From IMG/VR virus record IMGVR_UViG_3300037520_001345: a DNA stretch of 64,000 nucleotides. One strand, written 5' to 3'. Positions 15,541-64,000 of this stretch are shown here, one piece after another; position 1 is the stretch's first letter; each line of letters opens with the position of its first letter. The position numbers and the translations under genes were made by a program. The notes under the pieces were generated by a model. The model did not search any database, was not told where the DNA came from, and saw only the letters and a list, made by a program, of their open reading frames with translations. The stretch is from an uncultured virus (IMG/VR IMGVR_UViG_3300037520_001345) (Duplodnaviria; Heunggongvirae; Uroviricota; Caudoviricetes).

Positions 15541-15720
15541 ATGTTAGAAAAACAGTTTATTGATATTGAGGTAAATTCTGTATTCGTATTAGATGATTTA
15601 GAATATACAAAGATAGGAGAAGAAAGACTTAGTTGTTGCAAGGTGCTTAATGCCATTCGTAACGACACCAAAGAAAAAGTCATGATTCTTCCATTACAGC
15701 GAGTAAAGGTTTCAGCATGA
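15541..15720 (+). CDS. 59-aa hypothetical protein (MLEKQFIDIEVNSVFVLDDLEYTKIGEERLSCCKVLNAIRNDTKEKVMILPLQRVKVSA), below the ORF-track cutoff
   Basis: Translated by hand; purine-rich AAAGGG upstream; ATGA overlap with dnaQ. Confidence 0.7.
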   Translation: MLEKQFIDIEVNSVFVLDDLEYTKIGEERLSCCKVLNAIRNDTKEKVMILPLQRVKVSA

Positions 15721-26716: not shown

Positions 26717-27055
26717 ATGAAAGTGAATTATAAAGCAAATAATAAACTACAATTTGAAATAGAAGCAGAAGGACAAAAAGAAGTCTTTAAAGAATTAGCT
26801 AGTGTACAAGAAATTTTTGGCGAAGAACAATGTGGGGTATGCAAAGGAGCAGATCTAAAATTTGTTGTTCGCAATGTTGAGAGCAACGATTATTATGAAA
26901 TGAGGTGTGGTTCTCAAGGATGTGGGGCTACACTAGCGTTTGGACAGCATAAAAAAGGTGGAACGTTATTTCCCAAAAGGAAAGACGATCAAAACAATTG
27001 GTTACCCAATAAAGGTTGGCACAAGTGGCAAAAAGAGAAAGACAAAGACGACTGA
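26717..27055 (+). CDS. Zn-binding hypothetical protein
   Basis: CGVCKG...RCGSQGCG. Confidence 0.65.
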   Translation: MKVNYKANNKLQFEIEAEGQKEVFKELASVQEIFGEEQCGVCKGADLKFVVRNVESNDYYEMRCGSQGCGATLAFGQHKKGGTLFPKRKDDQNNWLPNKGWHKWQKEKDKDD

Positions 27056-40900: not shown

Positions 40901-43358
40901 TTTTTTGACTACCTCCAGTTAAAGGAATATCATTTCCGTTTGGCAGAGTTCCTGTAACTTGATATGCTGTGTTAATATCTGTATATATTTGAGGAGAAGG
41001 AACACTAATCATAAATTGTTTACCATAATATTCATCAGCAATATTTTTCAAAAACTGTTGTAATTTAACGAATACTCCGTATGCTCTTTGATCAGTATAA
41101 ATACTAGAAGCTGGTCCTGTAGGTACGCTTTGTCCTCCTGATTGTGAATTGCTATAAGCATTATAATGATTTTTTAATCCCATAGATATACTAGGTCCAA
41201 AATTAACTAAAAATCTTAATACTTTACGATATATATCTAGTTTAACAGCAGAAGGGGATATTCCGAGAGATACTGATTCAGCCGCGACGGCAGTTATAAA
41301 TGCAATATAAGCGTCTGGTCCACTCATAGCTGCTCTGAACTCTAACTCAGAAATTCCAATAGGAGTTCGATCAGTTAAATTATATCCTACTATATTTTCT
41401 ATTTCTGCAGCGCTAAACTCTACAACAAATCCTAAACCAGATTTATTGCCAAATGGATTAATTTGAGGATTTCCTGTTTGTAAATTTATTTCATTATAAT
41501 TGTGATAAATAGGTCTCACTAATTTAGTAAAAGGATCCGTACCAAAAAAAGGACAAATAGCATCAGATAAACTAGAAGGATAACTCAATTCTGCGGGAGA
41601 TATTTGAGTACCAACAACGTTAAGAGGTTTTTGATAATTACCTCTTAATATATTAGTAGCCCATGTATCCGTCGTATTAAAAGCTCCCGCAGCCCTTGCA
41701 TCAACTCTGCCAGTAACTCCTAAAACAGTATTTACAACATATCCCATATCTAAATTTCTTAAACTATTAAGATCTGGAAATCTATATTGTTGTGTAGCAC
41801 TTGGTCCATAGTGTTGTACTTGAGCAAAAGTTTTAGTATATGGATTGTATTTGAGAGTACTTTGCGAAACAGCATATTTTACATTTTTTACCTGATATAA
41901 TCTTTGTTGTTTACCTCCAATATATACTGATCTAACGGGTTTAGTATTATTAAATTCTTCTCCCTTATTTGTTGCAGTTATGGTTGCTCCAGCGTCTGTT
42001 ATACCATCGATAAAAGACTGTACAGCCGTATCTCCAGGTGTTCTTAGATTAGAATAAGTATTAACTTTGATAACAGGGTATGTAAAATTACCTACACAGA
42101 ATATTTCTAAACTAATAAAAACTTCTTGACCAGTATTATCTGCTATATTATTAACTAAACTTAAAATATCTAAATTAGTTTCGCTCATACGATATTCTGC
42201 TGGAATAAAACCATTATCTACTAAATTACTTATATCTAGCATAAAAGGACTTAAATAAACATTAACTCCGTCTACAGACAATTGTTTAGGTTCTATAAGA
42301 CCCATACGAAACCTATCTGTATTCTGCCAGTTATAAATAGTAGTAGTATTTTTTAATAAAGGCGGCTTACCAACAATTCTAGCATAAGGAGCATATCTGA
42401 ATAATTTTCTATATCCTGCTTGATTAGGAATATTATTTACATATGCTTCTCCAGTACTTGTAAGTTCATATAATGCTGTTAAAATTTTCAAAACAGGTAT
42501 ACCTCGATCATTCTTCATAGATCTGCCATAAGAATATTCTGGCGTACGAGTTATTGGATCAAATAAAGCTCCGCTACTACCACCTGTACCATTGAAATTA
42601 GAATTATCTTCTAAATATCCATAAATATTGATAAGATTAGGTATATTTTGATTCCCTATCAAACCTGTATAATCATTACTGTATTCTAAACTAGGAAATC
42701 CAAGATATTGATTTTCGGAATACCAAGTAGAATCGGAGGCAACTTTAGAATGTATAGAACCAACATAATCTGATAAAATCATATTAGTTTGAGATAGTAA
42801 ATACGATGGAGATTCTATAATTACAGTATAGCTATCAGTACCCGAAGAAGAATTGCTTTTTTCCCAAGATTTAACAATACCATTAAATGAAAAATCGTCA
42901 TAAATAAAATAAACGGGTGTTCCTACAATATCTATACTCAAATTGGGATCAGGCATGTCCGCATAAAAACCAGGGTCAGGATCAGACCAATACCTAGAAA
43001 CAATTGCTCCGTTTGATGCTACATAATATACCTTTGCTGGGATTAAGCTATTCCCATTCTCGTCCTTGCTAAAATTATTATTTTGTCTAGCTGTTACATA
43101 GGCATTATCTTGTGTTGGTCTTGGAACTCTCGTGCCGTTAATATCAGTTAAAGAAGGATATTTACAAGAGTCATATACTAATTCAACAGTTAATCTACTG
43201 GATTCTGAGCCCCATGCCAAAGAAGCATTGAAAGATTTGATACTACATCCTAAAAACAGAGTTTGAGCATAAACCTTAGAGCAACATATTTTATAGTTGG
43301 TTGCTGGTCCTCCGTTTGTTCCTGATTTTGTAATTGTCGTATAGCACGGTGTTGTCAT
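37971..43358 (-). CDS. Large structural protein (1795 aa), putative tail tip/baseplate hub
   Basis: Beta-rich; N-terminal FLGCSIKSF...WG...LTVELV and FSFNGIVKSW resemble hub-like folds; GAGG SD; context. Confidence 0.55.
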   Translation of the reverse strand: MTTPCYTTITKSGTNGGPATNYKICCSKVYAQTLFLGCSIKSFNASLAWGSESSRLTVELVYDSCKYPSLTDINGTRVPRPTQDNAYVTARQNNNFSKDENGNSLIPAKVYYVASNGAIVSRYWSDPDPGFYADMPDPNLSIDIVGTPVYFIYDDFSFNGIVKSWEKSNSSSGTDSYTVIIESPSYLLSQTNMILSDYVGSIHSKVASDSTWYSENQYLGFPSLEYSNDYTGLIGNQNIPNLINIYGYLEDNSNFNGTGGSSGALFDPITRTPEYSYGRSMKNDRGIPVLKILTALYELTSTGEAYVNNIPNQAGYRKLFRYAPYARIVGKPPLLKNTTTIYNWQNTDRFRMGLIEPKQLSVDGVNVYLSPFMLDISNLVDNGFIPAEYRMSETNLDILSLVNNIADNTGQEVFISLEIFCVGNFTYPVIKVNTYSNLRTPGDTAVQSFIDGITDAGATITATNKGEEFNNTKPVRSVYIGGKQQRLYQVKNVKYAVSQSTLKYNPYTKTFAQVQHYGPSATQQYRFPDLNSLRNLDMGYVVNTVLGVTGRVDARAAGAFNTTDTWATNILRGNYQKPLNVVGTQISPAELSYPSSLSDAICPFFGTDPFTKLVRPIYHNYNEINLQTGNPQINPFGNKSGLGFVVEFSAAEIENIVGYNLTDRTPIGISELEFRAAMSGPDAYIAFITAVAAESVSLGISPSAVKLDIYRKVLRFLVNFGPSISMGLKNHYNAYSNSQSGGQSVPTGPASSIYTDQRAYGVFVKLQQFLKNIADEYYGKQFMISVPSPQIYTDINTAYQVTGTLPNGNDIPLTGGSQKIYSSFELATDGAWEEPGNVIDDTLTIGTSDVDEFINDNGLIQTILGYSNLPLYNYYREFEYSLYNNTINFNTNFNFYNFTKFDAYRSAGVFHNWSTSNPTFYWEPSLMFSGDKYKVVPYRHSFSDSYNSRTIPADLASKVYVKADVEENLVFAKNGNSVIPKIIVKTDKIDINPISPDALSVSAAIAEFMLPEYSATNNAVISIRAKKILAISNRYVNNGAGFTAENYLQDSGNKQYNNLSIAPKAAMPAFAAIPVKDNRAVYGPWISSPDMFIDDIFSYLGDDSAHKSRKLETLIGGVNVNVDPSLVPWNYGSMVVLDMVAIQLATQDNNYQLKGETGQLSYYGTPMFNLGNELKAAAYAFGGPVINNIQTQISENGPLTTYTFRTYTKKFSLFNKENADRLKEAGEQNIRFEKQLRQQYAAIREQLSSIAGRPTLSNFDLGASVPKLRSYSPLNVLVGYSSPFFSRKATKQPKFLANRFDNTNIWTGDSIRQLTTVTLQNIREVPSEFENSYSSKAFMSMDGLLQPISFYPTLSNSTTPLKKYYTSGCPFCNGTKQYSFTLSDGNTRSLWCDFCSGEVAGSEAGPSDASNGRLPPFILSNEADSSIIRDPNAVSALLDNFKRKRINYVNLNPLIMPVGELRNQYAQLNDFTAHHIDIVGRSQVPPQSLSFYQNLDIDQNGREYSDQNNSFADADINSKSFDNVNNRTNTSITQMNYRFLGLRGPLIMAGWGFDTEGYPVPNASGEPKGFFSNGQPWRISSLTQQQTGTEGAILGKNQEWSNDEGRWSEPTREDKFYQGWGLRPDSWPVGPVDLRWDHAKKVWTTPQPYKLVDIQLEDDLVPPFPARGFLNAVDRKTPLPNGLRRMVFVKDSSETFGAPRGAKILCYYDEGSGFYEPISRQNIIALGYIQSNGSARIFNAYAKGYDPVTGLPESPEEITVQYGNPLNFPLTTPNQTGVFMYIRNSWTLISTYSCT

Positions 43359-49378: not shown

Positions 49379-52300
49379 TTATGAAGAAGACCCTTCGCTA
49401 GTTCTACTACGAGCATCAAAAGCTGATTGAATAGCATTCTGAATGATACCACCAATTGGTCCTGACAGAAGATTTTGCAAGACATTTGCTCCATTAATTG
49501 TAACATTTATAGGTTGATCCTGAGTTAATTTAACATTAATTACTGGTGGCAATGCTGTTTGTAGGCGTTCGATAAATTGGTCTAATTTAGTCCCAAGAGC
49601 ATTTATAGCAGCAATAGGGTTGTTGTTTGTATTATTAGATACACCACTAACACGATTGTCCGTATTACCGCCAGATAGATTTTCTCTTATGCCGTTAAGC
49701 GTTGTTGACAAACCAGTCAATGAGGCATTAATACTTTCGGCCCCTAGTTGCAGAACGGAACTAAGTTGAGCGATATTCTGTTGTAATACATCTGTACCTG
49801 GAGTACCATCAGCCAAATATTTGACTCTTCCTCCACCAGAATAATATCCATTATTTATTCCTTGTAATAAGCCTAAATGTTTTTGTGCTGCATTTCGGTT
49901 AACAACAAACTCACCAGGAGTTAGCATTGCTGGTACAGTATCTGATCCTTGTGGTTGATAGTTAACCAACATGCCATTACTAGCATAAACAACTCCTCCC
50001 TTGTTCATCATGGCTGCTGGAGGAACAAATTGTTGACCTCGTGTTGGATCTTGATTTTTAAATTCTGGGAAAGTATTACCAATTTTTTGCCAAACTTGAT
50101 CCATGATAGAGGCTTCTTGTGAAGCAGTTTGGAATTGGGTGTCTAGGATCGTGCCTAGGGTAATATTACCTCTTTGTGGTATTTTATAGTTTTTATCTTT
50201 ATCTTTAAGTTGTGTTAAAGCCCCCTTTGTATTTTGTATTATAGTTTTTAGATAATTAAAGCGATTAGTCTGTTGAACATATCTACCCTTAGCTGTATTA
50301 TATCTTTGTGCTGGGTCTGCAATTTTTTGGAATTCTTGAATATAATTTTGAGCAATAGTGTCAGCTGATAAATCCTCTTTTATAGCGTCGTTATTAAGTT
50401 CTTCAAATAAATTAGGATTAGTATTAATTTGATTTACTATGAACATAGCTAATCTACTCAATCCTGCTTGATTTAAACCTCTTTGATCCTTATAGGCCTG
50501 TCTTCTGTCTGCTTGTTGTTTCTTATAATTAGCTTCTCGTTCAGCTAATATTTCTTTGTAACTCATACCTACTGGTCCGCCTCCCGGTCTATAGATAGGA
50601 TTAACTATCCCTCCATCTGATAAATGATTTGTTATATCTTGTCCTTTATTAATAGCTTGTAATAATCCTAGGTTCTGTTGAGTTGCTTCTCTGTTAATAA
50701 CAAATTCACCCGGAGTTAACATGGCGGGAACAGTATCGGTACCACGAGGCTGATAATTGACTAGTGTTCCTTGACTAGCATAAATTAAACCTCCATTTGC
50801 TCTATTTTGTACTGGTGGTTTATTGGCTAGTTGAGCTAATAATTCTCGGGGAAAAATCTCTGTTCCAGCTTCTGCAAAAATTCTCAATGCCGCCTCATCT
50901 ACAGACTCTAGACTATGCATACTTAATTTACCACTAAATAATGATAATGATCTTGCTGTTCCCAATGACATATTCTGCATCTCTTGTAGATGTATATCAC
51001 CAAGAGTTGATCTTCCTATACCATCAGCCAGAGATTGATTAATATCAGTTCCATAAATAAATAATGATATAATATCTCTATAACTAGACATTAGATCTAT
51101 TAACTGACCATTAAATTTATCTGCTCCAAATGATACCGCACCTATGGGCAAATTCTGATCTACACAAAAATCTAATAAATCTTTTAATGCAGAATCCTCT
51201 ATTTTAGAAAGACCATTAAGATCTAATGCTCCCGTTCGGGCAATAATATTTTCTAAATCATCTTTTTGCTCAGGATTTCTCTGTATAATGGTCTTAATTT
51301 TAGCTAAATTAGAGGATACATAAGGATTAGTAAAATTACCAGATGATAATTCACTAAAAATACTACTAGCTGATGTTTGTTCCATATCTTCTAATTTTAA
51401 TTTATCTTGACCAAATTGTTGTCCAAATTTGTCTGGATCTAATTGACTATAATACTCTTTTATCATTGGTGTTAAATCAATGCCTGTAAGGAAACGACCC
51501 CCAATAGTTGGAGACGACAGATCTGTGGATGAACCACCTCCGGAATCTTCAAGAGCATTATCAACAAAATATTTGACTAATGACATAGGGGGTTCTGTTA
51601 AACCCTTTGCAGAAATACGACTAGCCATGTGTTCTTTGAACAGGTTAGCGGAAGATTGGTCCAGAGAGTTTAGTGAATCAAAATTAAAATCAGTTATCCA
51701 AGCTAAACGATTAGCGCTTAATTGTTTAAATATTTCTTGAGCTACTGTTGGTGGTAAATTCTTAAGATTACCTAGATTTAGTGAACTATTATTCTCTAGT
51801 GAGGTAATAAAATCTTTATTCTTAAATAATGCTTTAACTTCATTAACAGTCAGAGCAGAAATTTTATCTACTCCATTTTTTACTCTAACTTCTGTGATGC
51901 CCTCTAATCTATCTACATCTTGATTTTGTCTAGCCTGTTTATTTTTTTCTATCTCTTGTTTTCTTTCTTGTTGTTTCTGCTGTGCTTTTGCTTTGGCTTG
52001 TGCTCTATTTTTTGCGGTAGCTGATGGTACGAACTGAGCATCTTCGAAATCAGCTACTCCTCCTGCTGCTAGATATACTGGTCCTCCATTACTATACCCA
52101 GTTGCTGTTCCACCACTATTAATAGATTTTAATAGAGGCAAATGTTTCTGAGTTGCTGCTCTATTAACCACAAACTCGCCGGGAGTTAACATGGCGGGTA
52201 CTGTGTCTGTACCACGAGGCTGGTAGTTTACTAATGTTCCTGTTGAAGCATAAATTATTCCACCTCTAGCTTTAGCTAATACGTCAATATTACTAGGCAT

Positions 52301-55300
52301 TAAATTGTCTGAACCAGTATATTTAATAGCCGATTCGGCTGGCATAGTTTCAAAAAATCCTTCTTTAAATTTTGCTAATAGCTTAGGATCTCTCTTGCCA
52401 ACAGCCGACATAATTCTAGACAGTATTTCTCCATCTCTAGTAGTGTAATCTGTTTGAGAACCATAGATCCATTTTCGTGGAGCTAAACCAGTAGCTCTTT
52501 GCTCAAGGAAATCAAGACCACCAATAGCTGTTGGAACACTAGTTCTTATACCTTTTTGTGCTTCTCTACCCATAGCTCCAGGATCCATCATTCTCTCTAG
52601 CAACATCGGATTTTTTTGATCAGATAATATCTTTTGTACATCATCAAAATGATCGTATAACCATTTGGTAACATATCCAGCATTCAGCTCATAGTCTAAA
52701 TCAAATCTTGATGGATCTAATGTTTCATCAAATTTAACAATCATGGGCTTGCCACGAGCATCTGCTCCTGTAAGCATATTTCCTTTAATAATGCTTCTTG
52801 CGTGTTTTTCAGCTGCTTCCCTACTAGTGTAGGTGTACAATCCTTGACCTTGCCCATACCCCTTTGCAATACTACTTTTACCACCTTCTTTTTGAAAACT
52901 TTTTAAAATAGAGTTTTCTAAACCAGTATTGCTAGCATGAAAAAGAGACATAGTTTTAGAAGCTTTTGGCACATCTAATGGAGCACTCATAGCTGGTCTA
53001 CTTCTTAAAGAGAATTCTTCCAAAGCTTCTTGACCAGCACTTTTCATATCTGGTCTTACAGAAGCATTATTATTAGGACGTAGAGAGGGTATTCTTACAG
53101 TATTTTTTATAGAAGAACCAAGTAAATTACGACCTATCCTATCGGCACCAAAACCACCAACCATTGATCCTAATAATGAGGACTGCCAGTGCTCCTCGGT
53201 GGTATCTTTCATCTGTCTATTTGTTTCTGGAGCCAAAGCATTCAAATAATTTTCTTGAGCTTGATATGTAGCCGCTGATGCTAAGCCAGCTAAAGCAAAT
53301 CCACCAAAACCTGTAGTGGGTAATCCTAAAACTCCAGCACCCAAACCAGCTAAACCTGGAAGTACGGACTTAGCAGCTCCGTATATAAAAGCTTTTCCTT
53401 CTTCGGCCAACTTTTCACTATCAAAATTAGTAATAGGTTGTTGGGGCAGTGTTGAAGTTGGACCCTTTCCATGACGATTCATCATGGGGTTTAATGGTCT
53501 TGATGGATCAAATCCTTCGGCAGCATAAATTACTCCGCCTCTTGAGAGTGATTGTGGAGTTGCTGCTGGTTGCTGACCTTGATCAAAAGGATTAGCTTTT
53601 GGCTGTTGTTCTTTGGCTAGAATTGATTTTGATGCTTCGCTAATTCTTGGAAATCTTTTAAGTCGTATTCCTAGTTGATTGTCAACACTAAATTGTCTTA
53701 GATAGTAATCAATTTTTGATTTATAATCTCTTTGTTTTTTAAGAGCTTCTATTATATCTTGTTTATCTGTAGTATCATTATAAAGAATGCCAAGTTTATC
53801 AATAAATTCTGCTTTTTCTTCTTTTTCTATCTGCCTTTGTAAATATGCTGTTCGTTTAGCTTTACGAGCATTAAAATTAGTATCAGCAGAACCGTCTGGT
53901 TTAGTTGGGATTGTGCCTCCGTCAGCAGCATAAACAATTCCACCATTAGTAAAACCTTTAATGCTACTAATAACTTGATTATTATTAATAGCTTGTAATA
54001 AAGGTAGGTTTGCCTGGGTTGATGCTCGGTTTACAACAAACTCTCCGGGAGTTAGCATAGCAGGAACAGTATCAGTTCCACGAGGAGAATAAGGAATCAT
54101 CATGCCATTATTAGCATAAATCATACCTCCTCTAGCTCTATGGACAAGACTGGGATCGTCTTTTAAGTCTCTTTCTGTTTGTTCATATACTCTTAGTCTT
54201 TGTGATAAATCTGGATAAGTTTTCTCTAAAGTTTTTTGTTTTACGGGACCAATACGACTTGGATTTCCTTTTATATCATTTACAGGATATCTTTCTATAA
54301 TCTTTTCAATAGCTGCTAGTTTTTCCGCAGCATCTTTATCTTCCGGTGATGCTGTTTTTTCTTTCCATTTTTCAACCTTTTCTTTCACTTCTGGTGTGGC
54401 TACACCTTTTCTAACATCATCACTCTCTTGTGCTGTAACTTGTTTTCCAGATACATCAGGTATAGATGCCTCGATCTCTTCTTCTGAAGCTTGTTTGCGG
54501 GTTGCTTGGTCTACATTTTTCTTATCCAGACTCGCATAGTATGCAAGTGCCGCTACGGCAACTGCTGCTGTAGCTGTTGTTTTATTAAATAAATATTTGC
54601 CTATGCCTGCTCCTTTACTTCCTTGAGCCGGATATGCTGTTTTATCTAATAATTGAATTAGATCATTTATGCCTTTGGAATCTGGATGACCTTGCCCCAA
54701 TATCCTCAGGTCTGTTATCGCTTTTTCGTATGCTTCTGTTGCTTTTGCTGAATTAGTTTTACCAGATAAAGCTGTTTGTAGAGTGTCTAAAATTTTAAGT
54801 CTTCTAGATGCAGGGTCAAGATTTGAATTAGCTTTAATCTTATTTATTAAATCAAATATATTACTTGCTCCTTCGTAATTAATTCCTTTATTAGCAGCTC
54901 TGGTTGCAAAAATACCAGCCATACCAGCAGTAGATGCTGTTGCCAAATTAGCCATCTTAGTAGCACCCGCCGCTTGTCCAACACCTTCTATTAAAGAAAG
55001 AGAACTTAGTCCCGCTGATGTTGTATCTCCTCTTAAAAGATCTATAGGAATACTAGCCAAATCAAAAATATTACCTATAGCTGGTATCAATCCTAGTCCA
55101 GCAAGAGTCATAGATATATCATCTAAGAATTCAGTATCATCCCATGTTCCATATTTGCCGTCAAAGCCAGAAATTCTTTTATAATTATCTAATTCTTCGT
55201 GTAATGAAGAGACTATTCCTGGTACTGTTAATCTATGACTAAATAATTCTTTTGCTAATACAGGATCTTGTAATCTAACTCTAGCAATAGCTTCATCAAA

Positions 55301-58300
55301 TTTAGTGGTTGTTTTGAACTTGTTTGTTGACATCATGTCAAAGACTGTAACTGGACGAACAGTATCTCGTAGATCTAGTATTAATTGGGGATATTTTTCC
55401 ATAGCTTCTGTGATTGTAGCTATTTTATTAGCTCTATTTTCTCTTCTTATTTTTGCTTCGTAACCAGCTTTCATTTCTTGATCACGCATCATTTGTTCAT
55501 CTGTACCTACTCCGACATTCTGGTCTATTTCTCCTCCAAATTGAGCATATACTACTCCTCCTCTGCTGTATGCTTTACCACTATTAATTTGTTGTAATAA
55601 CGGAAGATTACTTTGAGCTGCCTGTCTATTAATAACAAATTCGCCGGGCGTCAACATTGCTGGCACAGTATCTGTTCCTCTTGGCTGAAAATTAATCATA
55701 CCACCAGATTGTGCAGCAACAGAGTTGACAACACCTCCTGTTTGGAATCCTTGTACAACTCTACCACCAAACCAATTTTGATCAGGTAACTCTCCAAATG
55801 TTTTTGCCAAACCTAAAGTAGTGTGGGCAATATTAGCTTGTGATCTGAGAGGTAAATTAGCTGCTAAACTAGCTTGAAATGTATTAGATCTTGCAACATT
55901 ATCGGGATTACCTACTTTATCGAATAAAAAGTCTTGACCAACCCATCCAGGATTACCCCCATACCATTCTTTAAGTACATTAACTCTATCTACTAAATAT
56001 TTAAGAGTAAATTGATCAAAATAAGGCAATCCGTTCGATCCTTTGAAACTAGAAATATCATTAACGAACTTGTCCATTAGATCTTTTCTAGTATTAACAT
56101 CAGCAAATTCATTATATGGATTAAATAATAGTTTAATTAAACCCATAAGATCTGTTGGAATAGCATCTACCATCTGCTGTCTGCCTAAAGTACCATTTGG
56201 AGATACTGTTCTAACTAATCCATTCTGTATTTGTGCTCCTAATATATTTTGCCAATCTGGAGACAGTTGTAAACCAGAAAGTCTGGACATTAACATAGTT
56301 CCGCCAAGAGTTCTAAATAAACTCATGTAGTCAGAGCCTACCATATTAAATTGTGCTAATAATCCTGTATCTCCGGATGCTAATCCAGCAAAAGCTTTAG
56401 CTGCACCAGAAGCCACAGTATAGACCTCTTTAAGATATTGAAACTGATCAGGTCTTCTGATGCTGTTACTAATTGATGATAAATAACCTCCAAAGTTTTC
56501 CATTACATTAGCAGCATATCCTGAGATATTCTTAGCTTGTCCAGCATTAATTTTTTGTAAATTAGGAACTTTACCGATATAAGATGCTAACCATCCATTT
56601 CTAGTTCCTGGGACTCTTGCTCTTCCAAAAATTTGTAGAGCAGATTTTGACATTCTTCTTAAAGCTTCTGGTATATTTTGATCATCAACAGTAAGATTTT
56701 TAAATCCCTTATTGGCTATAGAATCAGCTTGATTACCAGCTCTGGCTCTTACTCTGTCTATTTGAGACAAAATATGCTCTCCCATTTCGATACCGAAAGG
56801 CTGATTAGATACTGGACTAACTAGGGTATCCAAACCAGGAAATACCATCTCTAAGCTTTTGATAAATGACGAATCTAATTGTCCTATCATAGCCTTTTGT
56901 AAATTAGTTTTAGCAGCACCGTCGGGTTTTGTAGGATCTGTTAATATACTATTAATATATTTTTGTACATCAGCGTTTGGTAATGCTACAGCATTTAAAG
57001 CCTTATTAATATCTGCTGGTGTATATTTAGCGCCAGGAAATAAACCTATTCTACGCTTATCTAGTATTGCGGGATTAATACCTTCAAATAGGGTTCCTCC
57101 TGTGTTTGATGGCAAGAATAGCTTAGTAGCTGCTGGTTCGAATTGTTTATTAATTGGATCATATAATTTGCCTTCCCATTCATCATATGCTATTTTTAAA
57201 TCCATATTTGGATTACCGCCAAGTAACTGTTGCAATCCCCATGCAGCAGGAACTGGTACTGCCAGATTTTCCTCTGGTAGTCTTGTCATCTTAATATCGC
57301 CAGGATTAGCAGCAGCAAGCTGTGCTTCTAGTTGTTGTCTTAATACAGGGTCTAGATCATCTAATTTACCATTAATAACATAGGGGAAAGCTTTAGATCG
57401 TTGACGAATAGCTCCCAGATCATCAAGCTCTTTGATACGGATGCCTTGTGGTGGACCTGGGTCAACGAAAGGAAGAGCATTTCCAGCAGCATCTGTTGCT
57501 TTTAGTCCAGCTCCACTAAACATCAAATCTCTATTTTTTGCTATAATAGGATTTGCTGCCAATTCTTCTATAGTTTTGTTGAGTGCCGGTACAGCTCCAG
57601 GATTAAAAATAGCCAAACTATTAGCTGTTCCAGTAATTCTTAGCTGATCGAAATATCTACTAATAACATCTGCTCCAGGAAAAATTTCTCCTACTGATCC
57701 ATTATATAATTTAGATAATTGATTTTGAATTTCTAGTGTTTTTGCATCTACTTTTCCCTTATCGTCAAATGCTGGAGCTCTTAAAAAATTAGCAGTATTT
57801 TCATATTTCTGGTATGATTCGTCGTTAGAGTCTTTTAGTGCTCCCAACTTATCAAAAGCAATAACGTCTTTTTCCCAATTTGACATAACCAAAGAGGTAC
57901 CAGCCTCTCTTTTTTGTTCGAAATCAGTAGAAGCATACGGTGTTCCCATAGCAAAGTTAGGGAAATTAGTGGATACAACGTCAGTTTCTCCTCCTCTTTT
58001 TGGTTTCCAAATTTTATACATATTTTTTCTTTCATCAGATAATGCCGGGCCTGCTCCAGCCTGTCTTTCTTTTGCAATACCTAATGACTTACCTTTTACT
58101 ATTGTTGTAGCAAATTTATCTCCATCTCCAGTAAAATCTGATGGAAAAGGCATAGATCCGAAATTATTAAGATCTAGATTATATTTAGCTAATGACCAAT
58201 CAATATTATTATCTTTTGCTTTTTTCTTATATTTTTCTAGCTCTAGTTCATTTAGCTTAATAGTACTCAAACTGTCTGAGCCATCAGTATGAAAAAAGCT

Positions 58301-61300
58301 CTTTTCATCTTTAATACCAGCAAATCTAGAAAGAGCTGCTTCAGCACGATCCCATATTTGGTAATCTACTTTTGTTGCTCCTTCTTCATCTGTATATTTC
58401 ATTAATATTGGTCCCATACCCGGTACTACTCTGGTACCGGCATCTGGCTCTAGATCCTTAAGGTCTAGAGTTAATGTATTATCATCTGCTTTTGGAGTTT
58501 GTTTAGGGCTATTCAAAAACGTGTATACTGTAGGAGCTTGATATAAAGCAGACTTTGCTTTTGTTAAACCTGCTATTGCAGCAGGTGTATTTAGATCAAT
58601 AATTTCTGTAGTACTTTGTCTAGCTGATTTAGTAAAGATAGTTTCATCACCAAGATCATGTACGAAACCTCCTTTATCATAATATCTAACTTTTCCTCCT
58701 TTACTATATTTATTACTATTTATAGATTCTAATAGTCCTCTATTTCTACTAGTAGCTTGTCTATTAACAACAAATTCTCCGGGAGTCAACATGGCGGGAA
58801 CAGTGTCTGTTCCTTTGGCACTAAAATCAACCATTTGTCCTGCTGCTGCATAGATAATACCTCCTGAAGCTTTGCCTTGAGGCTGCAAAGGAGCTAGTCT
58901 ATTAATACCAGCAGCTATATCTGCTAAATGGGCATTAACGAAAGTTAATTGTGTTTTAGATAAAGCTAAACTAAGTGCTTTTGCAGATCTGTCTGCAATA
59001 TCTTGTGCAAGTGTTCCTTCTAAGTTTGCTAAGTATCTGTTAGCTTGTGCTTGTAATGCATTAGCTTCGTTATAATAAGCTAGTGCTGCGGAAACAGCCG
59101 GATCAACTTCTGGATTACGCAAACTATTTAAAACGTCCATAAACATTGGAGTTATGCCGATACCAGACTCTTGCAACATACTTTCTAATACATTTGCTCT
59201 AACATTAGATCCTTGTTTACTGTCTCCCAAGAAAGGCAATAAGTCTTGTAGTACTCCTAAAGTATCTTTTCTTTCATTGGCAAATGCTGCTTGTGCAGAT
59301 TTCATAGCTTCAAAAACATTGGCTCCATTGTTTAAAGCTTCACGATAAGCTTTTTGCGCTCCTATACTATTATTAATAGTATTAATTTGACCATTCATAT
59401 TCCGTTGTAGTCTAACAAATGACATATTAAGACCACTTAATTCTTCTGGAGTAGATGTTACAAGTTTTTCTATAAATGAAACCTTGCCCCCTATTCTTTG
59501 TTGAGCGTCTTGCATTTTTTGCATAGCATCTGATGCAAACTCAGTACTTTCCGCTAAGAGTTTTAAGCCACTAATATTTTCTCTTAAAGCGATACTTGTA
59601 TCTTTCACGTTGTTACTAAGTCTAGCAAAATCAGGAACTCCAGCTGGACCTCTTTCTGCTACTTGTGCTCGTGAACTTTCTTGTCTTCTTCTTAGAGCAT
59701 CTAAATCCAAAATAGAATTAAAAATTTCTCTAGGATCAACAGAACCTCCAGTAAAACTCTTAGTTTTATTTTGTAATCTTTGTCTGGACTGATCTAAATC
59801 AATAGTTTTTCCTAGTACTTTTGCTAATTCTACATTAGCATTAACTAAGATATCGTCAGCTCTACGCAATTTATCTCTACGAGATATTTCCAGGTCAATA
59901 GTTTTATTAATATTGTTTCTATAAGAATCTAATGCAGCTCCAAAACTTTCTAAAGCTTTACTAACTATTCCCTGAACATTCTGTGCGGTATCTAAAACTT
60001 TACTTAATGAAGCTACTTTATCTTGAATTTCAGAAAAAGACACCTTGTCTTCTCCAGATTTTCTTAATTCTCCTACTGCTCTACCAACTTGTTCTGCTAT
60101 TTTTTCTGATAACTCAGGTGGCAATCCTAGATCTTTTAGAGCTTGTCTAAGATTAGCATCAATTTTCATGGAGATAACTTCGTCATTTGCTTCAGGATTT
60201 TGTGCCAATACTGAATTTACAGTTTTCATTACTGTAGATTCTGCTGTTTCTCCAACAGACAATAGAGATTGAACTATATTAGATGAAGGTCCAAAAAAAC
60301 CACCTGCTGTTGCACGAGCTTGTGATCCTTGAAAATCGTTATATGATCTTGGATTATTTAATACATTAGACAATCCTAATTCTGTTGACTGTAAGGAAGC
60401 TTGTCCGTTTAAAGCTGCTATATTACCATCTATGCTTTGTTGCATTTGTTGCAAAGAGAACGATGTTGCTGCTATTGCCTGTTCCATGTTTCTAAACATA
60501 CGAATTAAAGATCCTGTATATACAGCAGTAAATCTTTGTACGGATTTAGCTTCTTTGTCTCTGATGGTAATCAATACCTGCTGTCTTGTTTTTTCTTGAG
60601 CAGCTGCGTCTATTATGCGTTTTTTTTCTTTCTCTATGACAGCTCCGTCTAATCCGCTATTTTCTAGTTCAAGGATCCTCTGACGAATAACCGCGTCTGC
60701 ATTAGCTAAAGACTCAGCAAAACTCTTGAAATTAGGATCATTAACAATATCTTGAAAAGATTCTCCTTTATAAGCTCTCTCTTTGAAGCTTTCAAGTAAA
60801 GAATCTGACAAAGCTTTACCAAGAGCCGCTTGTTCTTGTGCAAGTTGTGGTATAATTTTTTTATATTCATCAGCTAGTGATCTTTCGTCGCTGCGAGAAG
60901 CATAATAAGCTTTTTTACCACCAAGTCTCTCAATCTCAGATCTTTTATCAAATCCTTCAGTATCTCCTGTGCCAAAATATGGCATAGAGGTATATATGTA
61001 GTCTAATAGATTAGTAAAAGTAATAGTGGATTGTTTACTTACTCTGTCTAGAGCTGAAGCGAAAGCTTTCGAAGCAGATTCTAGAGCACTGTTTAGTCTA
61101 TCAAATCCTATATTATTTGCAGCTTTTCTTAATCTCTCAAATTCTTGCTCAACTCCCTTCATACTAAATTCAAGCTTTTGTTTCTGTAGATCAATATCAA
61201 ATTGATTCATTGCGTTAACAACATCTTTAATGGTCGAGACAATCGTAAAAGCAGCTGCTCCAAGAGCAGTTAATCGAGCTGCAACTCTTGTTAATCCCGA

Positions 61301-64000
61301 CCCGAATCTGCCTAATGTTGTATTAACGTTAGATAATCCTTTAGACATTTCATCCAATTGACTATATAGCATTAATCCTGTGCCTAATCCGGTTGTGGCT
61401 GTTTCTAAACCTGCTGCAAGACCGGCTGATTCTGCACTACTTTTCCTGTCTATACCTTGTGCTAATATGCCCCCAAACATTTGAATACCAAAAGCTCCTG
61501 TCATCATAGCTTGAGAACCTATTCCAGTACGACCCGGACCAGATGCTCCTCTAGTTTCGTTAAGTGTGTCTCGACGAATCCTTGCTTCTTGTTGAGCCAT
61601 TCTTCTGGCTTCTTCTAAAATTCTATTTCTATCACCTCCGAAACGACCTTCTGCTGTTAGTTGTCTTGTTAATTCAGCTCTTCTTCTAGTTTCAAAAGCT
61701 CTATTCATTTGTTCAAATGTTCTTGGATCTCCCATAGCAGTATTAATATATTGTCTAAGATCATTACCGCTTAATCCTGCTGTTTGTGTTGGTGATAATC
61801 CAGCTCTTTGAGCTGCTCTTCCATATGAAACGCTTTCTGCTCGTCTCATAAAAGTATCATCAAGATCACGACCACTTGCTTGACGTCTTTGAATCATAGC
61901 TTGTAAGTTTTGCTGTGCATCATAATCTATTGTTTCTAATTGACCACCATTAACTCCAGCTAATTGTCTTTGAGCTCTGACTTGAGCCGCTGCTTGCTGT
62001 CTGATATTAGCAAGTCTTGTTTCAGCTTCTATAACAGTTCTCATTGGTGCGCCAGAAACTCTTAATCTTAAAATATCTGCTTCATATGCTCTTGTAGCAG
62101 CTTCTACACTAATTTGTCCTCCTCTACGCAAGATATTGGCTGAGTCCGAAGACCTAACTCCTAATTCTTCTAGGGCATCTATCATCTGACCAAGACCTGT
62201 TACCACGCCGTCCGGAATGCGTAAATTCTCAAAAGAAGCTTGTGCTCCCGGTCTAGCTGGAACTCTTGGACCACCACCAAAGAAAAATCTTTGTACGGCA
62301 CCTCCAGCAGCGAAATTCTGTACGGTTCCTACCGGACCTCCTTTGTTAAATCCTTTAATTTTATCTGCTCTATTAAGAGTATGTAATCTACTAGATCCTA
62401 AACTACTAGCAGCTTTTTTATTAATTACAAACTCACCCGGAGTTAATAAAGCAGGAACAGTGTCTTGAACGGATCCTCCAGTAGCATACTGCTGAACATT
62501 AGCCCAAAGATTATGTCTCCCCATTAAATCTACGTATTTTGCTGTATTTACTCTAAATTTAGAACGAGGAGAAAGCATGAATTCGTTTTCTTCATTGGGT
62601 TGTTTCATGAAGAACGTTTCGGTTTTGCCTGTTCTTGGATTAATATCTTGTTTGGTTACATTAATTTTACGATCTTTTAATTGTTCGGCAACATCTACTC
62701 CTTGAGCATTCTTTTTTGTTTTTACAGTAAGCATAGCTGCCCAATTATCTTTTGCTCTTGGAGCATTATCTAAGAATGATTTGGCAACTGCGTAGTTTTT
62801 ACTTGTAGAAATGAATCCCGGAAGACTAAAAGTTTTACCAATAATTTTAGCTACTTCTGGAGCATAATATGCTTGTTTAGCATTAAATTTGGTTCCTTGT
62901 GGAATATCTGGATTTTTATTTAATCCAGTATCCATAGCAAATTTATCAAATGCATTACGAGATATTGAAGTATATAATTCCTCTGGTGCTTCTGTGCGAA
63001 GTTTACGTAAATTTCTAACATCTGAAGCTAATTGTTTTCTGTCCTCTTTATTTAATGATTTGCTATTAGACAAACCAAGATTAATTGGAGTAGCGTCTGT
63101 GTAGTATCTTTCTAGTGTGTCTAAAGGTTTTGATAAGCCTCCAGAAGCAAATTTTTGAACTACTCCTCCAAGATTATATCCTTTAACATTTTTAAGATAA
63201 GTAACAATATTATCCTCTACTGTTGATGGACCACTAATTGTTCTTTTTGCATCAGTGGGGATGTTTCCTGGTATATTAAAATATTTAGCTGCTCCCTTAA
63301 GTCCATTAGGAAAATCTAAACCTTGGCCTTTTAGAGCTGATGGTCCTCCTAATTGTTCGATCATTCTTTCAAAGATAACTCCTTGGGCTGTAGCATCAGC
63401 ATTAGTATTTTTTATACTTTTTCTATTACCATACCTATATGACGTAATTCCTTCTGTTGATCTAGCTTTGGCCGCTTTCACATTTCTAACATCATCATCA
63501 ACAAATACTGATCCTGGACTAAGTAATTCCGCTTTAAGTTTAGCTATTTGAGAACCAGAAACTCCTGGACCTCCCAATCCCTTGAATTGAGATAATGGAA
63601 TAGGTAATCCTTGAGAAGATAACCACTGATGAACAAGGTCTAATGTTGATGATGGACGAGCTGTAATTAGTCTTAGACTACTAAGTAATTCAGGTTTTTT
63701 AGAAACCATGCCAACTAATTCTCTACCTAATAAACTAAGCTTTGCTCCTTTAAGAGCGGCTGCTACTTTAGTTCTATCTCCAAACTCAGCAAACTTTGGA
63801 GTTTTTGGATCAGCCAACACTTTATCTGCTCCAAAAGCTAATGTTCTGTCAAAATCCAAATTCAATTCTCTACCAAGACCAAGATTAGATAAAATATCAG
63901 CCACCATTACTTTTTTAGCAGCTTGTTTGGCAGTTTTGTTAACAGAGGAAGAAAAAGACTGGTCCAGAGAAGCTGCTGTATCTGGATTCATAAGTCCACT
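49379..64000 (-). CDS. Giant tape-measure-like polyvalent protein (>4870 aa; frame open to the window edge, so 5'-truncated)
   Basis: Helical core with TM segments (~58870-62270); seven GTDTVPAMLTPGEFV modules typical of tape-measure C-termini; embedded enzyme motifs; directly upstream of tail genes. Confidence 0.8.
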   Translation of the reverse strand, partial: SGLMNPDTAASLDQSFSSSVNKTAKQAAKKVMVADILSNLGLGRELNLDFDRTLAFGADKVLADPKTPKFAEFGDRTKVAAALKGAKLSLLGRELVGMVSKKPELLSSLRLITARPSSTLDLVHQWLSSQGLPIPLSQFKGLGGPGVSGSQIAKLKAELLSPGSVFVDDDVRNVKAAKARSTEGITSYRYGNRKSIKNTNADATAQGVIFERMIEQLGGPSALKGQGLDFPNGLKGAAKYFNIPGNIPTDAKRTISGPSTVEDNIVTYLKNVKGYNLGGVVQKFASGGLSKPLDTLERYYTDATPINLGLSNSKSLNKEDRKQLASDVRNLRKLRTEAPEELYTSISRNAFDKFAMDTGLNKNPDIPQGTKFNAKQAYYAPEVAKIIGKTFSLPGFISTSKNYAVAKSFLDNAPRAKDNWAAMLTVKTKKNAQGVDVAEQLKDRKINVTKQDINPRTGKTETFFMKQPNEENEFMLSPRSKFRVNTAKYVDLMGRHNLWANVQQYATGGSVQDTVPALLTPGEFVINKKAASSLGSSRLHTLNRADKIKGFNKGGPVGTVQNFAAGGAVQRFFFGGGPRVPARPGAQASFENLRIPDGVVTGLGQMIDALEELGVRSSDSANILRRGGQISVEAATRAYEADILRLRVSGAPMRTVIEAETRLANIRQQAAAQVRAQRQLAGVNGGQLETIDYDAQQNLQAMIQRRQASGRDLDDTFMRRAESVSYGRAAQRAGLSPTQTAGLSGNDLRQYINTAMGDPRTFEQMNRAFETRRRAELTRQLTAEGRFGGDRNRILEEARRMAQQEARIRRDTLNETRGASGPGRTGIGSQAMMTGAFGIQMFGGILAQGIDRKSSAESAGLAAGLETATTGLGTGLMLYSQLDEMSKGLSNVNTTLGRFGSGLTRVAARLTALGAAAFTIVSTIKDVVNAMNQFDIDLQKQKLEFSMKGVEQEFERLRKAANNIGFDRLNSALESASKAFASALDRVSKQSTITFTNLLDYIYTSMPYFGTGDTEGFDKRSEIERLGGKKAYYASRSDERSLADEYKKIIPQLAQEQAALGKALSDSLLESFKERAYKGESFQDIVNDPNFKSFAESLANADAVIRQRILELENSGLDGAVIEKEKKRIIDAAAQEKTRQQVLITIRDKEAKSVQRFTAVYTGSLIRMFRNMEQAIAATSFSLQQMQQSIDGNIAALNGQASLQSTELGLSNVLNNPRSYNDFQGSQARATAGGFFGPSSNIVQSLLSVGETAESTVMKTVNSVLAQNPEANDEVISMKIDANLRQALKDLGLPPELSEKIAEQVGRAVGELRKSGEDKVSFSEIQDKVASLSKVLDTAQNVQGIVSKALESFGAALDSYRNNINKTIDLEISRRDKLRRADDILVNANVELAKVLGKTIDLDQSRQRLQNKTKSFTGGSVDPREIFNSILDLDALRRRQESSRAQVAERGPAGVPDFARLSNNVKDTSIALRENISGLKLLAESTEFASDAMQKMQDAQQRIGGKVSFIEKLVTSTPEELSGLNMSFVRLQRNMNGQINTINNSIGAQKAYREALNNGANVFEAMKSAQAAFANERKDTLGVLQDLLPFLGDSKQGSNVRANVLESMLQESGIGITPMFMDVLNSLRNPEVDPAVSAALAYYNEANALQAQANRYLANLEGTLAQDIADRSAKALSLALSKTQLTFVNAHLADIAAGINRLAPLQPQGKASGGIIYAAAGQMVDFSAKGTDTVPAMLTPGEFVVNRQATSRNRGLLESINSNKYSKGGKVRYYDKGGFVHDLGDETIFTKSARQSTTEIIDLNTPAAIAGLTKAKSALYQAPTVYTFLNSPKQTPKADDNTLTLDLKDLEPDAGTRVVPGMGPILMKYTDEEGATKVDYQIWDRAEAALSRFAGIKDEKSFFHTDGSDSLSTIKLNELELEKYKKKAKDNNIDWSLAKYNLDLNNFGSMPFPSDFTGDGDKFATTIVKGKSLGIAKERQAGAGPALSDERKNMYKIWKPKRGGETDVVSTNFPNFAMGTPYASTDFEQKREAGTSLVMSNWEKDVIAFDKLGALKDSNDESYQKYENTANFLRAPAFDDKGKVDAKTLEIQNQLSKLYNGSVGEIFPGADVISRYFDQLRITGTANSLAIFNPGAVPALNKTIEELAANPIIAKNRDLMFSGAGLKATDAAGNALPFVDPGPPQGIRIKELDDLGAIRQRSKAFPYVINGKLDDLDPVLRQQLEAQLAAANPGDIKMTRLPEENLAVPVPAAWGLQQLLGGNPNMDLKIAYDEWEGKLYDPINKQFEPAATKLFLPSNTGGTLFEGINPAILDKRRIGLFPGAKYTPADINKALNAVALPNADVQKYINSILTDPTKPDGAAKTNLQKAMIGQLDSSFIKSLEMVFPGLDTLVSPVSNQPFGIEMGEHILSQIDRVRARAGNQADSIANKGFKNLTVDDQNIPEALRRMSKSALQIFGRARVPGTRNGWLASYIGKVPNLQKINAGQAKNISGYAANVMENFGGYLSSISNSIRRPDQFQYLKEVYTVASGAAKAFAGLASGDTGLLAQFNMVGSDYMSLFRTLGGTMLMSRLSGLQLSPDWQNILGAQIQNGLVRTVSPNGTLGRQQMVDAIPTDLMGLIKLLFNPYNEFADVNTRKDLMDKFVNDISSFKGSNGLPYFDQFTLKYLVDRVNVLKEWYGGNPGWVGQDFLFDKVGNPDNVARSNTFQASLAANLPLRSQANIAHTTLGLAKTFGELPDQNWFGGRVVQGFQTGGVVNSVAAQSGGMINFQPRGTDTVPAMLTPGEFVINRQAAQSNLPLLQQINSGKAYSRGGVVYAQFGGEIDQNVGVGTDEQMMRDQEMKAGYEAKIRRENRANKIATITEAMEKYPQLILDLRDTVRPVTVFDMMSTNKFKTTTKFDEAIARVRLQDPVLAKELFSHRLTVPGIVSSLHEELDNYKRISGFDGKYGTWDDTEFLDDISMTLAGLGLIPAIGNIFDLASIPIDLLRGDTTSAGLSSLSLIEGVGQAAGATKMANLATASTAGMAGIFATRAANKGINYEGASNIFDLINKIKANSNLDPASRRLKILDTLQTALSGKTNSAKATEAYEKAITDLRILGQGHPDSKGINDLIQLLDKTAYPAQGSKGAGIGKYLFNKTTATAAVAVAALAYYASLDKKNVDQATRKQASEEEIEASIPDVSGKQVTAQESDDVRKGVATPEVKEKVEKWKEKTASPEDKDAAEKLAAIEKIIERYPVNDIKGNPSRIGPVKQKTLEKTYPDLSQRLRVYEQTERDLKDDPSLVHRARGGMIYANNGMMIPYSPRGTDTVPAMLTPGEFVVNRASTQANLPLLQAINNNQVISSIKGFTNGGIVYAADGGTIPTKPDGSADTNFNARKAKRTAYLQRQIEKEEKAEFIDKLGILYNDTTDKQDIIEALKKQRDYKSKIDYYLRQFSVDNQLGIRLKRFPRISEASKSILAKEQQPKANPFDQGQQPAATPQSLSRGGVIYAAEGFDPSRPLNPMMNRHGKGPTSTLPQQPITNFDSEKLAEEGKAFIYGAAKSVLPGLAGLGAGVLGLPTTGFGGFALAGLASAATYQAQENYLNALAPETNRQMKDTTEEHWQSSLLGSMVGGFGADRIGRNLLGSSIKNTVRIPSLRPNNNASVRPDMKSAGQEALEEFSLRSRPAMSAPLDVPKASKTMSLFHASNTGLENSILKSFQKEGGKSSIAKGYGQGQGLYTYTSREAAEKHARSIIKGNMLTGADARGKPMIVKFDETLDPSRFDLDYELNAGYVTKWLYDHFDDVQKILSDQKNPMLLERMMDPGAMGREAQKGIRTSVPTAIGGLDFLEQRATGLAPRKWIYGSQTDYTTRDGEILSRIMSAVGKRDPKLLAKFKEGFFETMPAESAIKYTGSDNLMPSNIDVLAKARGGIIYASTGTLVNYQPRGTDTVPAMLTPGEFVVNRAATQKHLPLLKSINSGGTATGYSNGGPVYLAAGGVADFEDAQFVPSATAKNRAQAKAKAQQKQQERKQEIEKNKQARQNQDVDRLEGITEVRVKNGVDKISALTVNEVKALFKNKDFITSLENNSSLNLGNLKNLPPTVAQEIFKQLSANRLAWITDFNFDSLNSLDQSSANLFKEHMASRISAKGLTEPPMSLVKYFVDNALEDSGGGSSTDLSSPTIGGRFLTGIDLTPMIKEYYSQLDPDKFGQQFGQDKLKLEDMEQTSASSIFSELSSGNFTNPYVSSNLAKIKTIIQRNPEQKDDLENIIARTGALDLNGLSKIEDSALKDLLDFCVDQNLPIGAVSFGADKFNGQLIDLMSSYRDIISLFIYGTDINQSLADGIGRSTLGDIHLQEMQNMSLGTARSLSLFSGKLSMHSLESVDEAALRIFAEAGTEIFPRELLAQLANKPPVQNRANGGLIYASQGTLVNYQPRGTDTVPAMLTPGEFVINREATQQNLGLLQAINKGQDITNHLSDGGIVNPIYRPGGGPVGMSYKEILAEREANYKKQQADRRQAYKDQRGLNQAGLSRLAMFIVNQINTNPNLFEELNNDAIKEDLSADTIAQNYIQEFQKIADPAQRYNTAKGRYVQQTNRFNYLKTIIQNTKGALTQLKDKDKNYKIPQRGNITLGTILDTQFQTASQEASIMDQVWQKIGNTFPEFKNQDPTRGQQFVPPAAMMNKGGVVYASNGMLVNYQPQGSDTVPAMLTPGEFVVNRNAAQKHLGLLQGINNGYYSGGGRVKYLADGTPGTDVLQQNIAQLSSVLQLGAESINASLTGLSTTLNGIRENLSGGNTDNRVSGVSNNTNNNPIAAINALGTKLDQFIERLQTALPPVINVKLTQDQPINVTINGANVLQNLLSGPIGGIIQNAIQSAFDARSRTSEGSSS
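49805..50008 (-). repeat. TMP spacer module R7
   Basis: MNKGGVVYASNGMLVNYQPQGSDTVPAMLTPGEFVVNR...YSGGGRVKYLADG. Confidence 0.92.
50576..50803 (-). repeat. TMP spacer module R6
   Basis: RANGGLIYASQGTLVNYQPRGTDTVPAMLTPGEFVINR...LSDGG. Confidence 0.92.
52058..52273 (-). repeat. TMP spacer module R5
   Basis: KARGGIIYASTGTLVNYQPRGTDTVPAMLTPGEFVVNR...YSNGGPVYLAAGG. Confidence 0.92.
53915..54139 (-). repeat. TMP spacer module R4
   Basis: RARGGMIYANNG...PRGTDTVPAMLTPGEFVVNR...LLQAIN...FTNGGIVYAADGG. Confidence 0.92.
55532..55747 (-). repeat. TMP spacer module R3
   Basis: FQTGG...QPRGTDTVPAMLTPGEFVINR...LLQQIN..YSRGGVVYAQFGG. Confidence 0.92.
58668..58873 (-). repeat. TMP spacer module R2
   Basis: KASGGIIYAAAG...GTDTVPAMLTPGEFVVNR...LLESIN...YSKGG..YYDKGG. 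Confidence 0.92.
62271..62488 (-). repeat. TMP spacer module R1
   Basis: YATGGSVQDTVPALLTPGEFVINK...FNKGG...FAAGG...FFFGG. Confidence 0.9.

Follow-up and report, generated by a model that had tools for sequence, protein, structure and literature searches.

Can the protein that measures the length of a phage tail also serve as a rack for exchangeable domains? Tape measures are usually viewed as rulers or channels with perhaps one enzyme, but one locus of an uncultured virus in the Caudoviricetes (IMG/VR record IMGVR_UViG_3300037520_001345) led us to a large family that uses the ruler in this other way. We analyzed a 64,000-nucleotide stretch of this virus, here called the window, in which one minus-strand frame (49379-64000) contains seven copies of a module with glycine-rich flanks. 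An initial annotation had read this frame as a tape-measure gene built as an array of effector domains delimited by the module. Comparison with 120 relatives showed that the segments between modules are exchanged by recombination within a fixed scaffold.

The frame is still open at the window edge. In the full virus record of 114,711 bases it starts at C1:2402, which adds 924 codons and an eighth module to the seven that had been counted and gives a protein of 5,797 aa. The predicted tape-measure identity was borne out by the missing N-terminal part, which matched PF10145 (TP901-type tape measure) at aa 190-393 (82.3 bits; Pfam cut-off, 33.2) and 10 PHROG tape-measure families at E < 0.001. 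The eight module cores lie at aa 536, 1437, 2656, 3701, 4234, 4856, 5346, and 5611. A profile built from 66 copies of relatives only scored these at 57 to 104 bits, compared with a best score of 6.1 bits in 200 shuffles of the protein, and found one further weak match (9.4 bits) among 1,419 six-frame genome segments. The consensus consists of a core, D-T-V-P-A-x-L-T-P-G-E-F-V, a helix ending in L-x-x-I-N, and a GG-x-V-x-Y flank on either side, with 11 columns invariant across 74 copies. Both of the half-modules reported initially are present, and each is the GG-x-V-x-Y flank alone.

A metagenome assembly with a repeated module could in principle have fused unrelated contigs into a single long frame, but we regard the chance of this as negligible. 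Contigs from four independent lake-water runs bridged all seven in-window modules without letter differences; only runs not marked as a possible source of the record were used, and three bridging joints with sides of <30 letters were excluded as repeat-derived matches from other organisms. We count this as already refuting a misassembly. Moreover, the module copies of the protein diverge widely from each other in DNA, a second record (L002) holds the same sequence, and the same set of eight modules recurs in two siblings, whose proteins are 5,762 and 5,786 aa long.

The module has no Pfam entry, although it matches many tape-measure PHROGs and occurs at 298 places in 217 records of cultured phages. 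The belief that it is mostly single copy elsewhere did not hold: Douge gp16 has two copies (E 7e-9), and gp18 of the Gordonia phage Sekhmet has three, one of them directly after a transglycosylase domain (1580-1670). Lambda gpH has one copy at 750-785 (E 0.027), and T5 pb2 was not among the PDB matches to the module. In the Sekhmet tape measure (L141), we also noted two more FAxGG sites, at aa 1275 and 1352; after the first comes a degenerate stretch resembling the module, which the profile did not pick up. The idea that the module is a stand-alone folded domain was rejected, as its monomer model had a pLDDT of 61.9, a pTM of 0.29, and two short helices. Literature searches, which covered the main texts of mostly open-access papers, listed no description of the module or of tape-measure cassette arrays.

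Exchange of cassettes within the family

A search with the N-terminal region, limited to lengths of 3,188 to 10,145 aa, scored 1,056 candidates, of which 684 were homologues; viral loci also hold shorter closed frames of 2,023 to 3,244 aa. We analyzed the best 120 relatives together with the 5,797-aa protein (121 proteins in total). The number of modules ranged from 1 to 9 per protein and was between 4 and 8 in 116 of them, with degenerate copies undercounted. Cutting the proteins at modules and half-modules gave 1,049 segments in 284 clusters, of which 183 were singletons. These formed 114 different architectures, an upper-leaning figure because clustering by coverage can split divergent homologues. 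Thus, as had been proposed, module number varies and cargo differs between conserved modules, and the segments are neither invariant nor devoid of enzyme folds, one of them having a HAD fold (see below).

Some parts are universal or widely shared. The N-terminus and the helical core were found in 121/121 proteins, the C-terminal piece in 80, and a 960-aa segment in 53. The family therefore shows a fixed scaffold (TP901-type N-terminus, helical core, and C-terminal piece) with two variable bays. By analogy with lambda, T5, and Douge, the C-terminal piece is likely a tail-tip anchor.

Along the relatives, identity to the 5,797-aa protein is discordant from one part to another. Among 14 chosen proteins for which this discordance was computed, P0001 is identical (100%) to the 5,797-aa protein over the N-terminus (first 500 residues), carries an unrelated domain in place of the second of two ADP-ribosyltransferase-like domains (ART1 and ART2), and rejoins at module 6. 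P0019 shares 74% identity over the N-terminus, 45% over the core, and 97% over ART2, and P0008 shares 46% over the core and 95% over the HAD unit. The ART1 DNA is common to L072 and L073 at 82 to 83% from aa 1206/1207 to 1433/1435, that is, from the half-module to module 2, and on either side of this block both loci have neighbors other than those in the 5,797-aa protein.

To quantify where such blocks end, we compared 20 chosen queries with the 121 proteins, using blocks of ≥75% identity and counting ends ≤15 aa from a module or GG motif. Of 134 ends, 88 lay at modules or GG motifs compared with 24.3 expected, and 50 lay at full modules compared with 18.7 expected; it is important to note that alignments tend to run on into conserved modules, which inflates this enrichment, and that the ends are not independent. 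When reciprocal pairs were removed, 79 of 114 ends lay at these sites, whereas 38 shifted controls averaged 17 and reached at most 33. These comparisons show that recombination adds, removes, relocates, and exchanges cassettes, with most of its end points at a module or GG flank.

The suggestion that the module is a recombination anchor is supported by these exchange ends, but an anchor in DNA is not all that it is. Among six module cores, 136 of 263 same-residue codon pairs use different codons, and therefore the module is more than a DNA anchor. The copies are old, conserved as protein, and under purifying selection. We infer that the module is a standard joint with an ancestral role in tail assembly or maturation.

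Cargo domains and their position

The HAD-like domain carries all four motifs of its superfamily, with D9, D11, T13, R75, K116, D128, and D129 invariant in 15/15 rows. Its model was confident (pLDDT of 77 to 98 by block), and the closest fold was the 3'-phosphatase domain of T4 polynucleotide kinase-phosphatase (Pnkp; PDB 5uj0, Z 12.5, rmsd 3.0, 125 aligned; 1ltq, Z 11.1). Motifs I to IV together with the Rossmannoid fold of the model show it to be a predicted HAD phosphatase. Identity to T4 Pnkp is, however, 11 to 12%, and no kinase was found in the 5,797-aa protein. A Pnkp-like pairing of kinase and phosphatase across the family was also rejected: the HAD domain and a P-loop domain co-occur in 21/121 relatives, compared with ~22 expected by independence. 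Pfam HAD families gave no match in 42 rows, and no significant match was obtained when PDB sequences were searched with profiles of the HAD unit, ART2, and the nuclease-like domain. The domain had been listed as the first from the N-terminus; its fold and motifs agree with the annotation, although the PF10145 domain and module 1 precede it in the full protein.

Next to it, a small nuclease-like domain has the motif E..D..(D/E)xK, with the D invariant and the E and K kept in ≥90% of 30 rows. No Pfam, PDB, or homologue match was found for it; word-index searches for relatives of this domain and of the Leu-rich segment found none, which is weak evidence. In the joint model of HAD, nuclease-like domain, and ART1, its pLDDT was 49 to 80, and the fold searches did not reach it.

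ART1 matched PF03496 at 29.1 bits (Pfam cut-off, 23.4), a family of the R-S-E clade, and keeps the S-T-S and E-x-E motifs (first Ser and both Glu in 30/30 copies). Its matches to R-S-E enzymes in the PDB were weak (best E, 0.006), and its part of the model had a pLDDT of <55 because three of the five alignment rows were misaligned. The annotation as an ADP-ribosyltransferase is thus supported by the Pfam match and two motifs, but not by the arginine of strand 1, which is replaced by Ser in 26 and Thr in 4 of the 30 copies. With this atypical residue in all copies, NAD use by ART1 is not assured. In L072 (3142-3400), ART1 is followed by a half-module and then by a second kind of HAD-like motif.

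The candidate ADP-ribosyltransferase ART2 was assigned from its motifs: the H is kept in 65/66 homologues, the Y in 56/66, and the D and E of D-x-E in 66/66. In a representative library it had 137 matches; of the 135 that were new, 111 were <400 aa, and the module is present in 18 of the remaining 24. ART2 also exists as stand-alone genes. A weak Atlas lead pointed to ART-PolyVal (0.89; 22% of cluster members), and a scan for this family (PF18760) matched 0/22 genomes, its control being silent as well.

Other segments are less easily named. No Pfam match to PT-TG (PF14449) was found at E 1 on the segment that had been called pre-toxin TG-like, nor in any of 22 genomes (control detected in 3/14), although the Gly-rich amphipathic stretch of this segment (54938-55216), present in 8/121 proteins, may bear a general resemblance to pre-toxin TG domains. 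The supposed transmembrane hairpin is a Gly/Ala-rich segment below the Kyte-Doolittle mean of 1.4, a value that only three windows of the protein reach (best, 1.62); the core has one borderline hydrophobic stretch, at aa 1830. The segment read as leucine-rich repeats had no Pfam match and no homologue beyond the two siblings, and its Atlas lead was to unnamed clusters, mostly from Planctomycetota (0.89 to 0.90, low recognition). In P0024, the 115-aa cassette that is single in the 5,797-aa protein is a tandem duplicate (aa 4226-4342 and 4359-4475). Relatives further carry a P-loop domain without a family (a cassette in 43/121, absent here), EF-hands, SHD1, a HIGH-NTase-associated domain, and several kinds of zincin HExxH domain (49/121). 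To call every segment an effector is too broad: the HAD fold speaks for the term, and the universal helical core of ~1,100 aa, the 960-aa segment in 53/121 proteins, and the few Pfam names speak against it.

The cargo is ordered along the protein. All copies of the HAD (62/62), nuclease-like (100/100), ART1 (30/30), and P-loop (43/43) domains lie before the core, and all PT-TG-like and glycine-rich segments and 5/5 EF-hands lie after it. ART2 occurs on both sides (7 and 7), as does HExxH. Cytoplasm-type enzymes, a new observation, thus lie almost only before the core.

Another way to account for so much sequence would be selection for a long tail, with captured domains as tolerated and mostly inert passengers in a structural repeat. 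The 183 singletons among 284 clusters, the lack of a family for most segments, the correlation of module number with protein length (Spearman, 0.57), and the atypical ART1 signature are all what such filler would leave. However, dN/dS was 0.07 to 0.34 in 8/8 pairs over HAD, the nuclease-like domain, ART1, and ART2, which shows that the cargo is under purifying selection at the protein level. The invariance of the whole HAD catalytic set, the strict placement of four enzyme types before the core, and the replacement, between near-identical siblings, of a single cassette by an unrelated one close to it in size are also hard to reconcile with inert filler, and we consider it distinctly unlikely.

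A polymorphic toxin array carried by the phage, serving to kill nonpermissive cells or competitors rather than to help infection, would explain why a glycine-rich segment precedes a swappable tip domain; the stretch resembling PT-TG would fit as well, and toxin tips are, in textbook accounts, commonly ART or nuclease-like domains. Here, though, the variable domains are many and internal, with no single C-terminal tip, PF14449 is unmatched, the next downstream genes encode 936, 453, and 592 aa, none adjoining being small, and the three genes upstream are found again in a distant relative. We regard a toxin array as very unlikely.

Layout of the protein and its genomic setting

Table 1. Features of the 5,797-aa tape-measure protein, from N- to C-terminus. 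Positions refer to the window unless prefixed C1 (full virus record).
Feature	Position	Strand	Basis or remark
Tape-measure gene, in-window part, aa 925-5797	49379..64000	-	ORF, Pfam, PHROG
aa 1-924 (PF10145 domain and module 1)	C1:2402-5173, outside window	as above	ORF and Pfam
HAD-superfamily phosphatase domain (predicted), aa 965-1117	63422..63880	-	motifs, model, fold match
Nuclease-like small domain, aa 1120-1198	63179..63415	-	E..D..(D/E)xK motif only
GG half-module, 5' edge of ART1 cassette	63137..63187	-	sequence; also sub-threshold partial profile match
ADP-ribosyltransferase-like domain 1 (ART1), aa 1213-1423	62504..63136	-	Pfam PF03496
Module 2	62273..62503	-	profile
Helical tape-measure core, aa 1501-2627	58892..62272	-	121/121 proteins; helicity read from sequence
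Module 3	58667..58891	-	profile
960-aa semi-conserved segment, aa 2707-3665	55778..58654	-	53/121 proteins; no Pfam/PHROG match
Module 4	55547..55759	-	profile
Variable segment, aa 3745-4205	54158..55540	-	Gly-rich amphipathic stretch at 54938-55216
Module 5	53921..54154	-	profile
115-aa helical-looking cassette	53564..53905	-	patchy, 9/120 relatives
GG half-module	53519..53563	-	sequence; DNA block common with L070 begins at aa 4410
Gly/Ala-rich, glycine-zipper-like segment before ART2	52973..53518	-	25/121 proteins; below hydrophobicity threshold
ADP-ribosyltransferase-like domain 2 (ART2), aa 4605-4828	52289..52960	-	H-Y-acid pattern
Module 6	52067..52288	-	profile; folded as monomer, no stand-alone fold
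Lineage-specific segment, loosely repeated Leu-rich units	50825..52060	-	only two siblings among 120 relatives
Module 7	50579..50818	-	profile
180-aa helical-looking segment	50024..50575	-	20/121 proteins
Module 8, ~145 aa from C-terminus	49817..50023	-	profile
Conserved C-terminal piece	49379..49810	-	cluster in 80/121 proteins

The gene lies among late virion genes: the tape measure is itself a tail gene, and a downstream gene of 2,526 aa matches virion structural PHROGs over one stretch. This gene and another very large one of 1,795 aa (30379-37959 and 37971-43358, minus strand) follow the tape measure and have no Pfam family. Gene order upstream is conserved. The presumed tail tube gene there had no family match, and a chaperone match reached only E 0.093. 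No small ORF (≥100 aa) directly follows the tape-measure gene; immunity genes were not searched across relatives. Sheath and baseplate-J families were absent in 5/5 complete relatives (controls detected in 3/14), and the tail is thus probably non-contractile. In the phage collection, no cultured relative exceeded 23 to 28% identity. Host leads consisted of one NCBI label from a Sphingobacteriia bin, a weak lead to Planctomycetota, and one short contig of a genome collection, and no RNA run was listed among the holders of the sequence.

Farther away in the window, a DNA polymerase match covers a 624-aa ORF followed by ORFs of 230 and 520 aa (13642-17952, plus strand); read by eye, an exonuclease gene may interrupt the polymerase. 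A 314-aa gene (27016-27960, plus strand) has a hydrophobic N-terminus and a domain common to hypothetical proteins of Caulobacter and other phages, and it may resemble planctomycete proteins. Outside the window, at C1:69165-92267, ~30 consecutive ORFs resemble, by eye, glycosyltransferases, methyltransferases, and sugar-modifying enzymes.

Delivery through the tail and relation to known systems

What would a ruler with cargo do? We favor, as probable, a polyvalent tape measure of a lake phage with a non-contractile tail, which would deliver exchangeable enzymes, those of the first bay reaching the cytoplasm; the precedents of P23-45, T5, and lambda are among the reasons for this preference. 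The whole chain would be threaded extended through the tail and ejected on infection, the core would form a channel through the envelope, and the cargo would refold after ejection. The enzymes before the core (phosphatase, ART1, nuclease-like, and P-loop) would probably reach the cytoplasm, where they may modify host proteins or nucleotides or blunt defenses before phage gene expression. The bay after the core, with its more variable domains (EF-hand, glycine-rich, and zincin), probably serves the envelope in part. We propose that tape-measure cargo lets the phage influence its host ahead of any expression of its own genes.

Tail length bears on whether the chain is measured whole. According to PMC12617516, the 853-aa tape measure of lambda belongs to a 132.7-nm tail, and according to PMC13033339, the 1,699 aa of Douge belong to one of 269.6 nm with a lumen of ~35 Å. 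The two give the same rate over their full lengths, and module-bearing tape measures therefore count whole. At this rate, the 5,797-aa protein predicts a tail of 900 to 920 nm, and the longest listed relative one of ~1.2 µm.

Such extreme tails, and folded domains too big for a lumen of the Douge size, would be avoided if a polyprotein were cleaved at its modules ahead of assembly or in its course, so that scaffold pieces alone measured the tail and the cargo was packed elsewhere in the virion or acted late in the producing cell. The excess of HExxH motifs (84 in 141 family proteins compared with 0.7 expected) is also in favor of this reading. No length could be measured, however, by a ruler severed between its N-terminus, core, and C-terminal anchor before assembly, and the lambda cut comes after tail assembly in the account of PMC12617516. 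By the figures in these sources, Douge has two modules and yet a rate equal to that of lambda, and the 5,797-aa protein has no HExxH. We judge early cutting unlikely.

Several points weigh against the polyvalent tape measure that we favor. Predicted tails of 0.9 to 1.2 µm are at or beyond the upper figure of 875 nm in PMC13033339. The missing HExxH rules out self-cleavage by a zincin of the protein's own. The module match in lambda is weak. Of 114 block ends, 35 are away from modules, one of them being the 5' boundary of the ART2 swap, and the enrichment of the rest is inflated as described above. The strand-1 arginine is lacking in ART1, and family leads for ART2 are weak only, with PF18760 matched in 1/66 homologues at E 0.019. 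The nuclease-like domain, present in 100/121 proteins, behaves partly as scaffold. Pfam at E 0.002 names enzyme-type families in few of 134 segments of relatives and leaves most unmatched. Finally, the presence of ART2 on either side of the core makes a strict division into two compartments less convincing.

The module could plausibly be a site of cleavage that releases the cargo, although we lean against this; otherwise, the cargo would work tethered, as in P23-45. More speculatively, and in our view doubtful, the module may be a universal, uncatalogued processing signal of tape measures, the one that is cut in lambda gpH, amplified here into a connector. The tail would then be a self-sorting polyprotein injector, with cassettes before the core sent to the cytoplasm, those after it to the envelope, and new enzymes acquired from solo genes through recombination at this connector. 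Since the joint is shared with lambda and with cultured phages of Gordonia and Mycobacterium smegmatis, its function can be tested in laboratory strains. The family is also a pool of uncharacterized enzymes, such as ART2, with >100 solo homologues and no curated family.

The polymorphic toxin layout, with a single variable domain at the C-terminus, differs from that seen here, in which the C-terminus is conserved (80/121) and the variable domains are internal. The closest concept is the polyvalent protein as described by Iyer et al. 2017 (PMC5512222) for phages and conjugative elements, in which unrelated enzymatic domains are joined in one large virion-linked polypeptide predicted to be injected with the DNA; ART and zincin metallopeptidase domains are frequent, and many domains also occur as solo genes. 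The 5,797-aa protein falls under the broad definition given there, with ≥2 disparate domains (HAD fold and Pfam ART) in a late virion gene. Unlike those proteins, its carrier is the tail ruler, its domains are set apart by copies of a single module, and it has no zincin, the most common though not obligatory domain of that class. The word "tape" occurs 0 times in the main text, although the supplements may list tape-measure fusions.

Individual tape measures provide further parallels. In Thermus phage P23-45, gp96 is a 5,002-aa tape measure fused to a virion RNA polymerase and full-size in virions (PMC10770324), likewise a giant ruler with an N-terminal cytoplasmic enzyme; that enzyme is single and fixed, no cassette array is reported for gp96, and we identified no polymerase in the 5,797-aa protein. 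Douge gp16 and Sekhmet gp18, actinophage tape measures with embedded wall hydrolases, have two and three modules but only 1,700 to 2,200 aa and envelope enzymes only. In lambda, as PMC12617516 describes it, gpH is cut after tail assembly into gpH* and gpHC at an unmapped site in its glycine-rich C-terminal region, and site and catalyst have been open since 1974. The module copy of gpH falls in the unresolved region (~690-817) near this cut, and module 8 is similarly far from the C-terminus here. T5 pb2 is cut into pb2* and pb2C, which frees an enzyme domain, and the C-terminal piece leaves first, for the periplasm, by the account of PMC10038345. The 5,797-aa protein differs from both in having eight copies of the module with enzymes between them.

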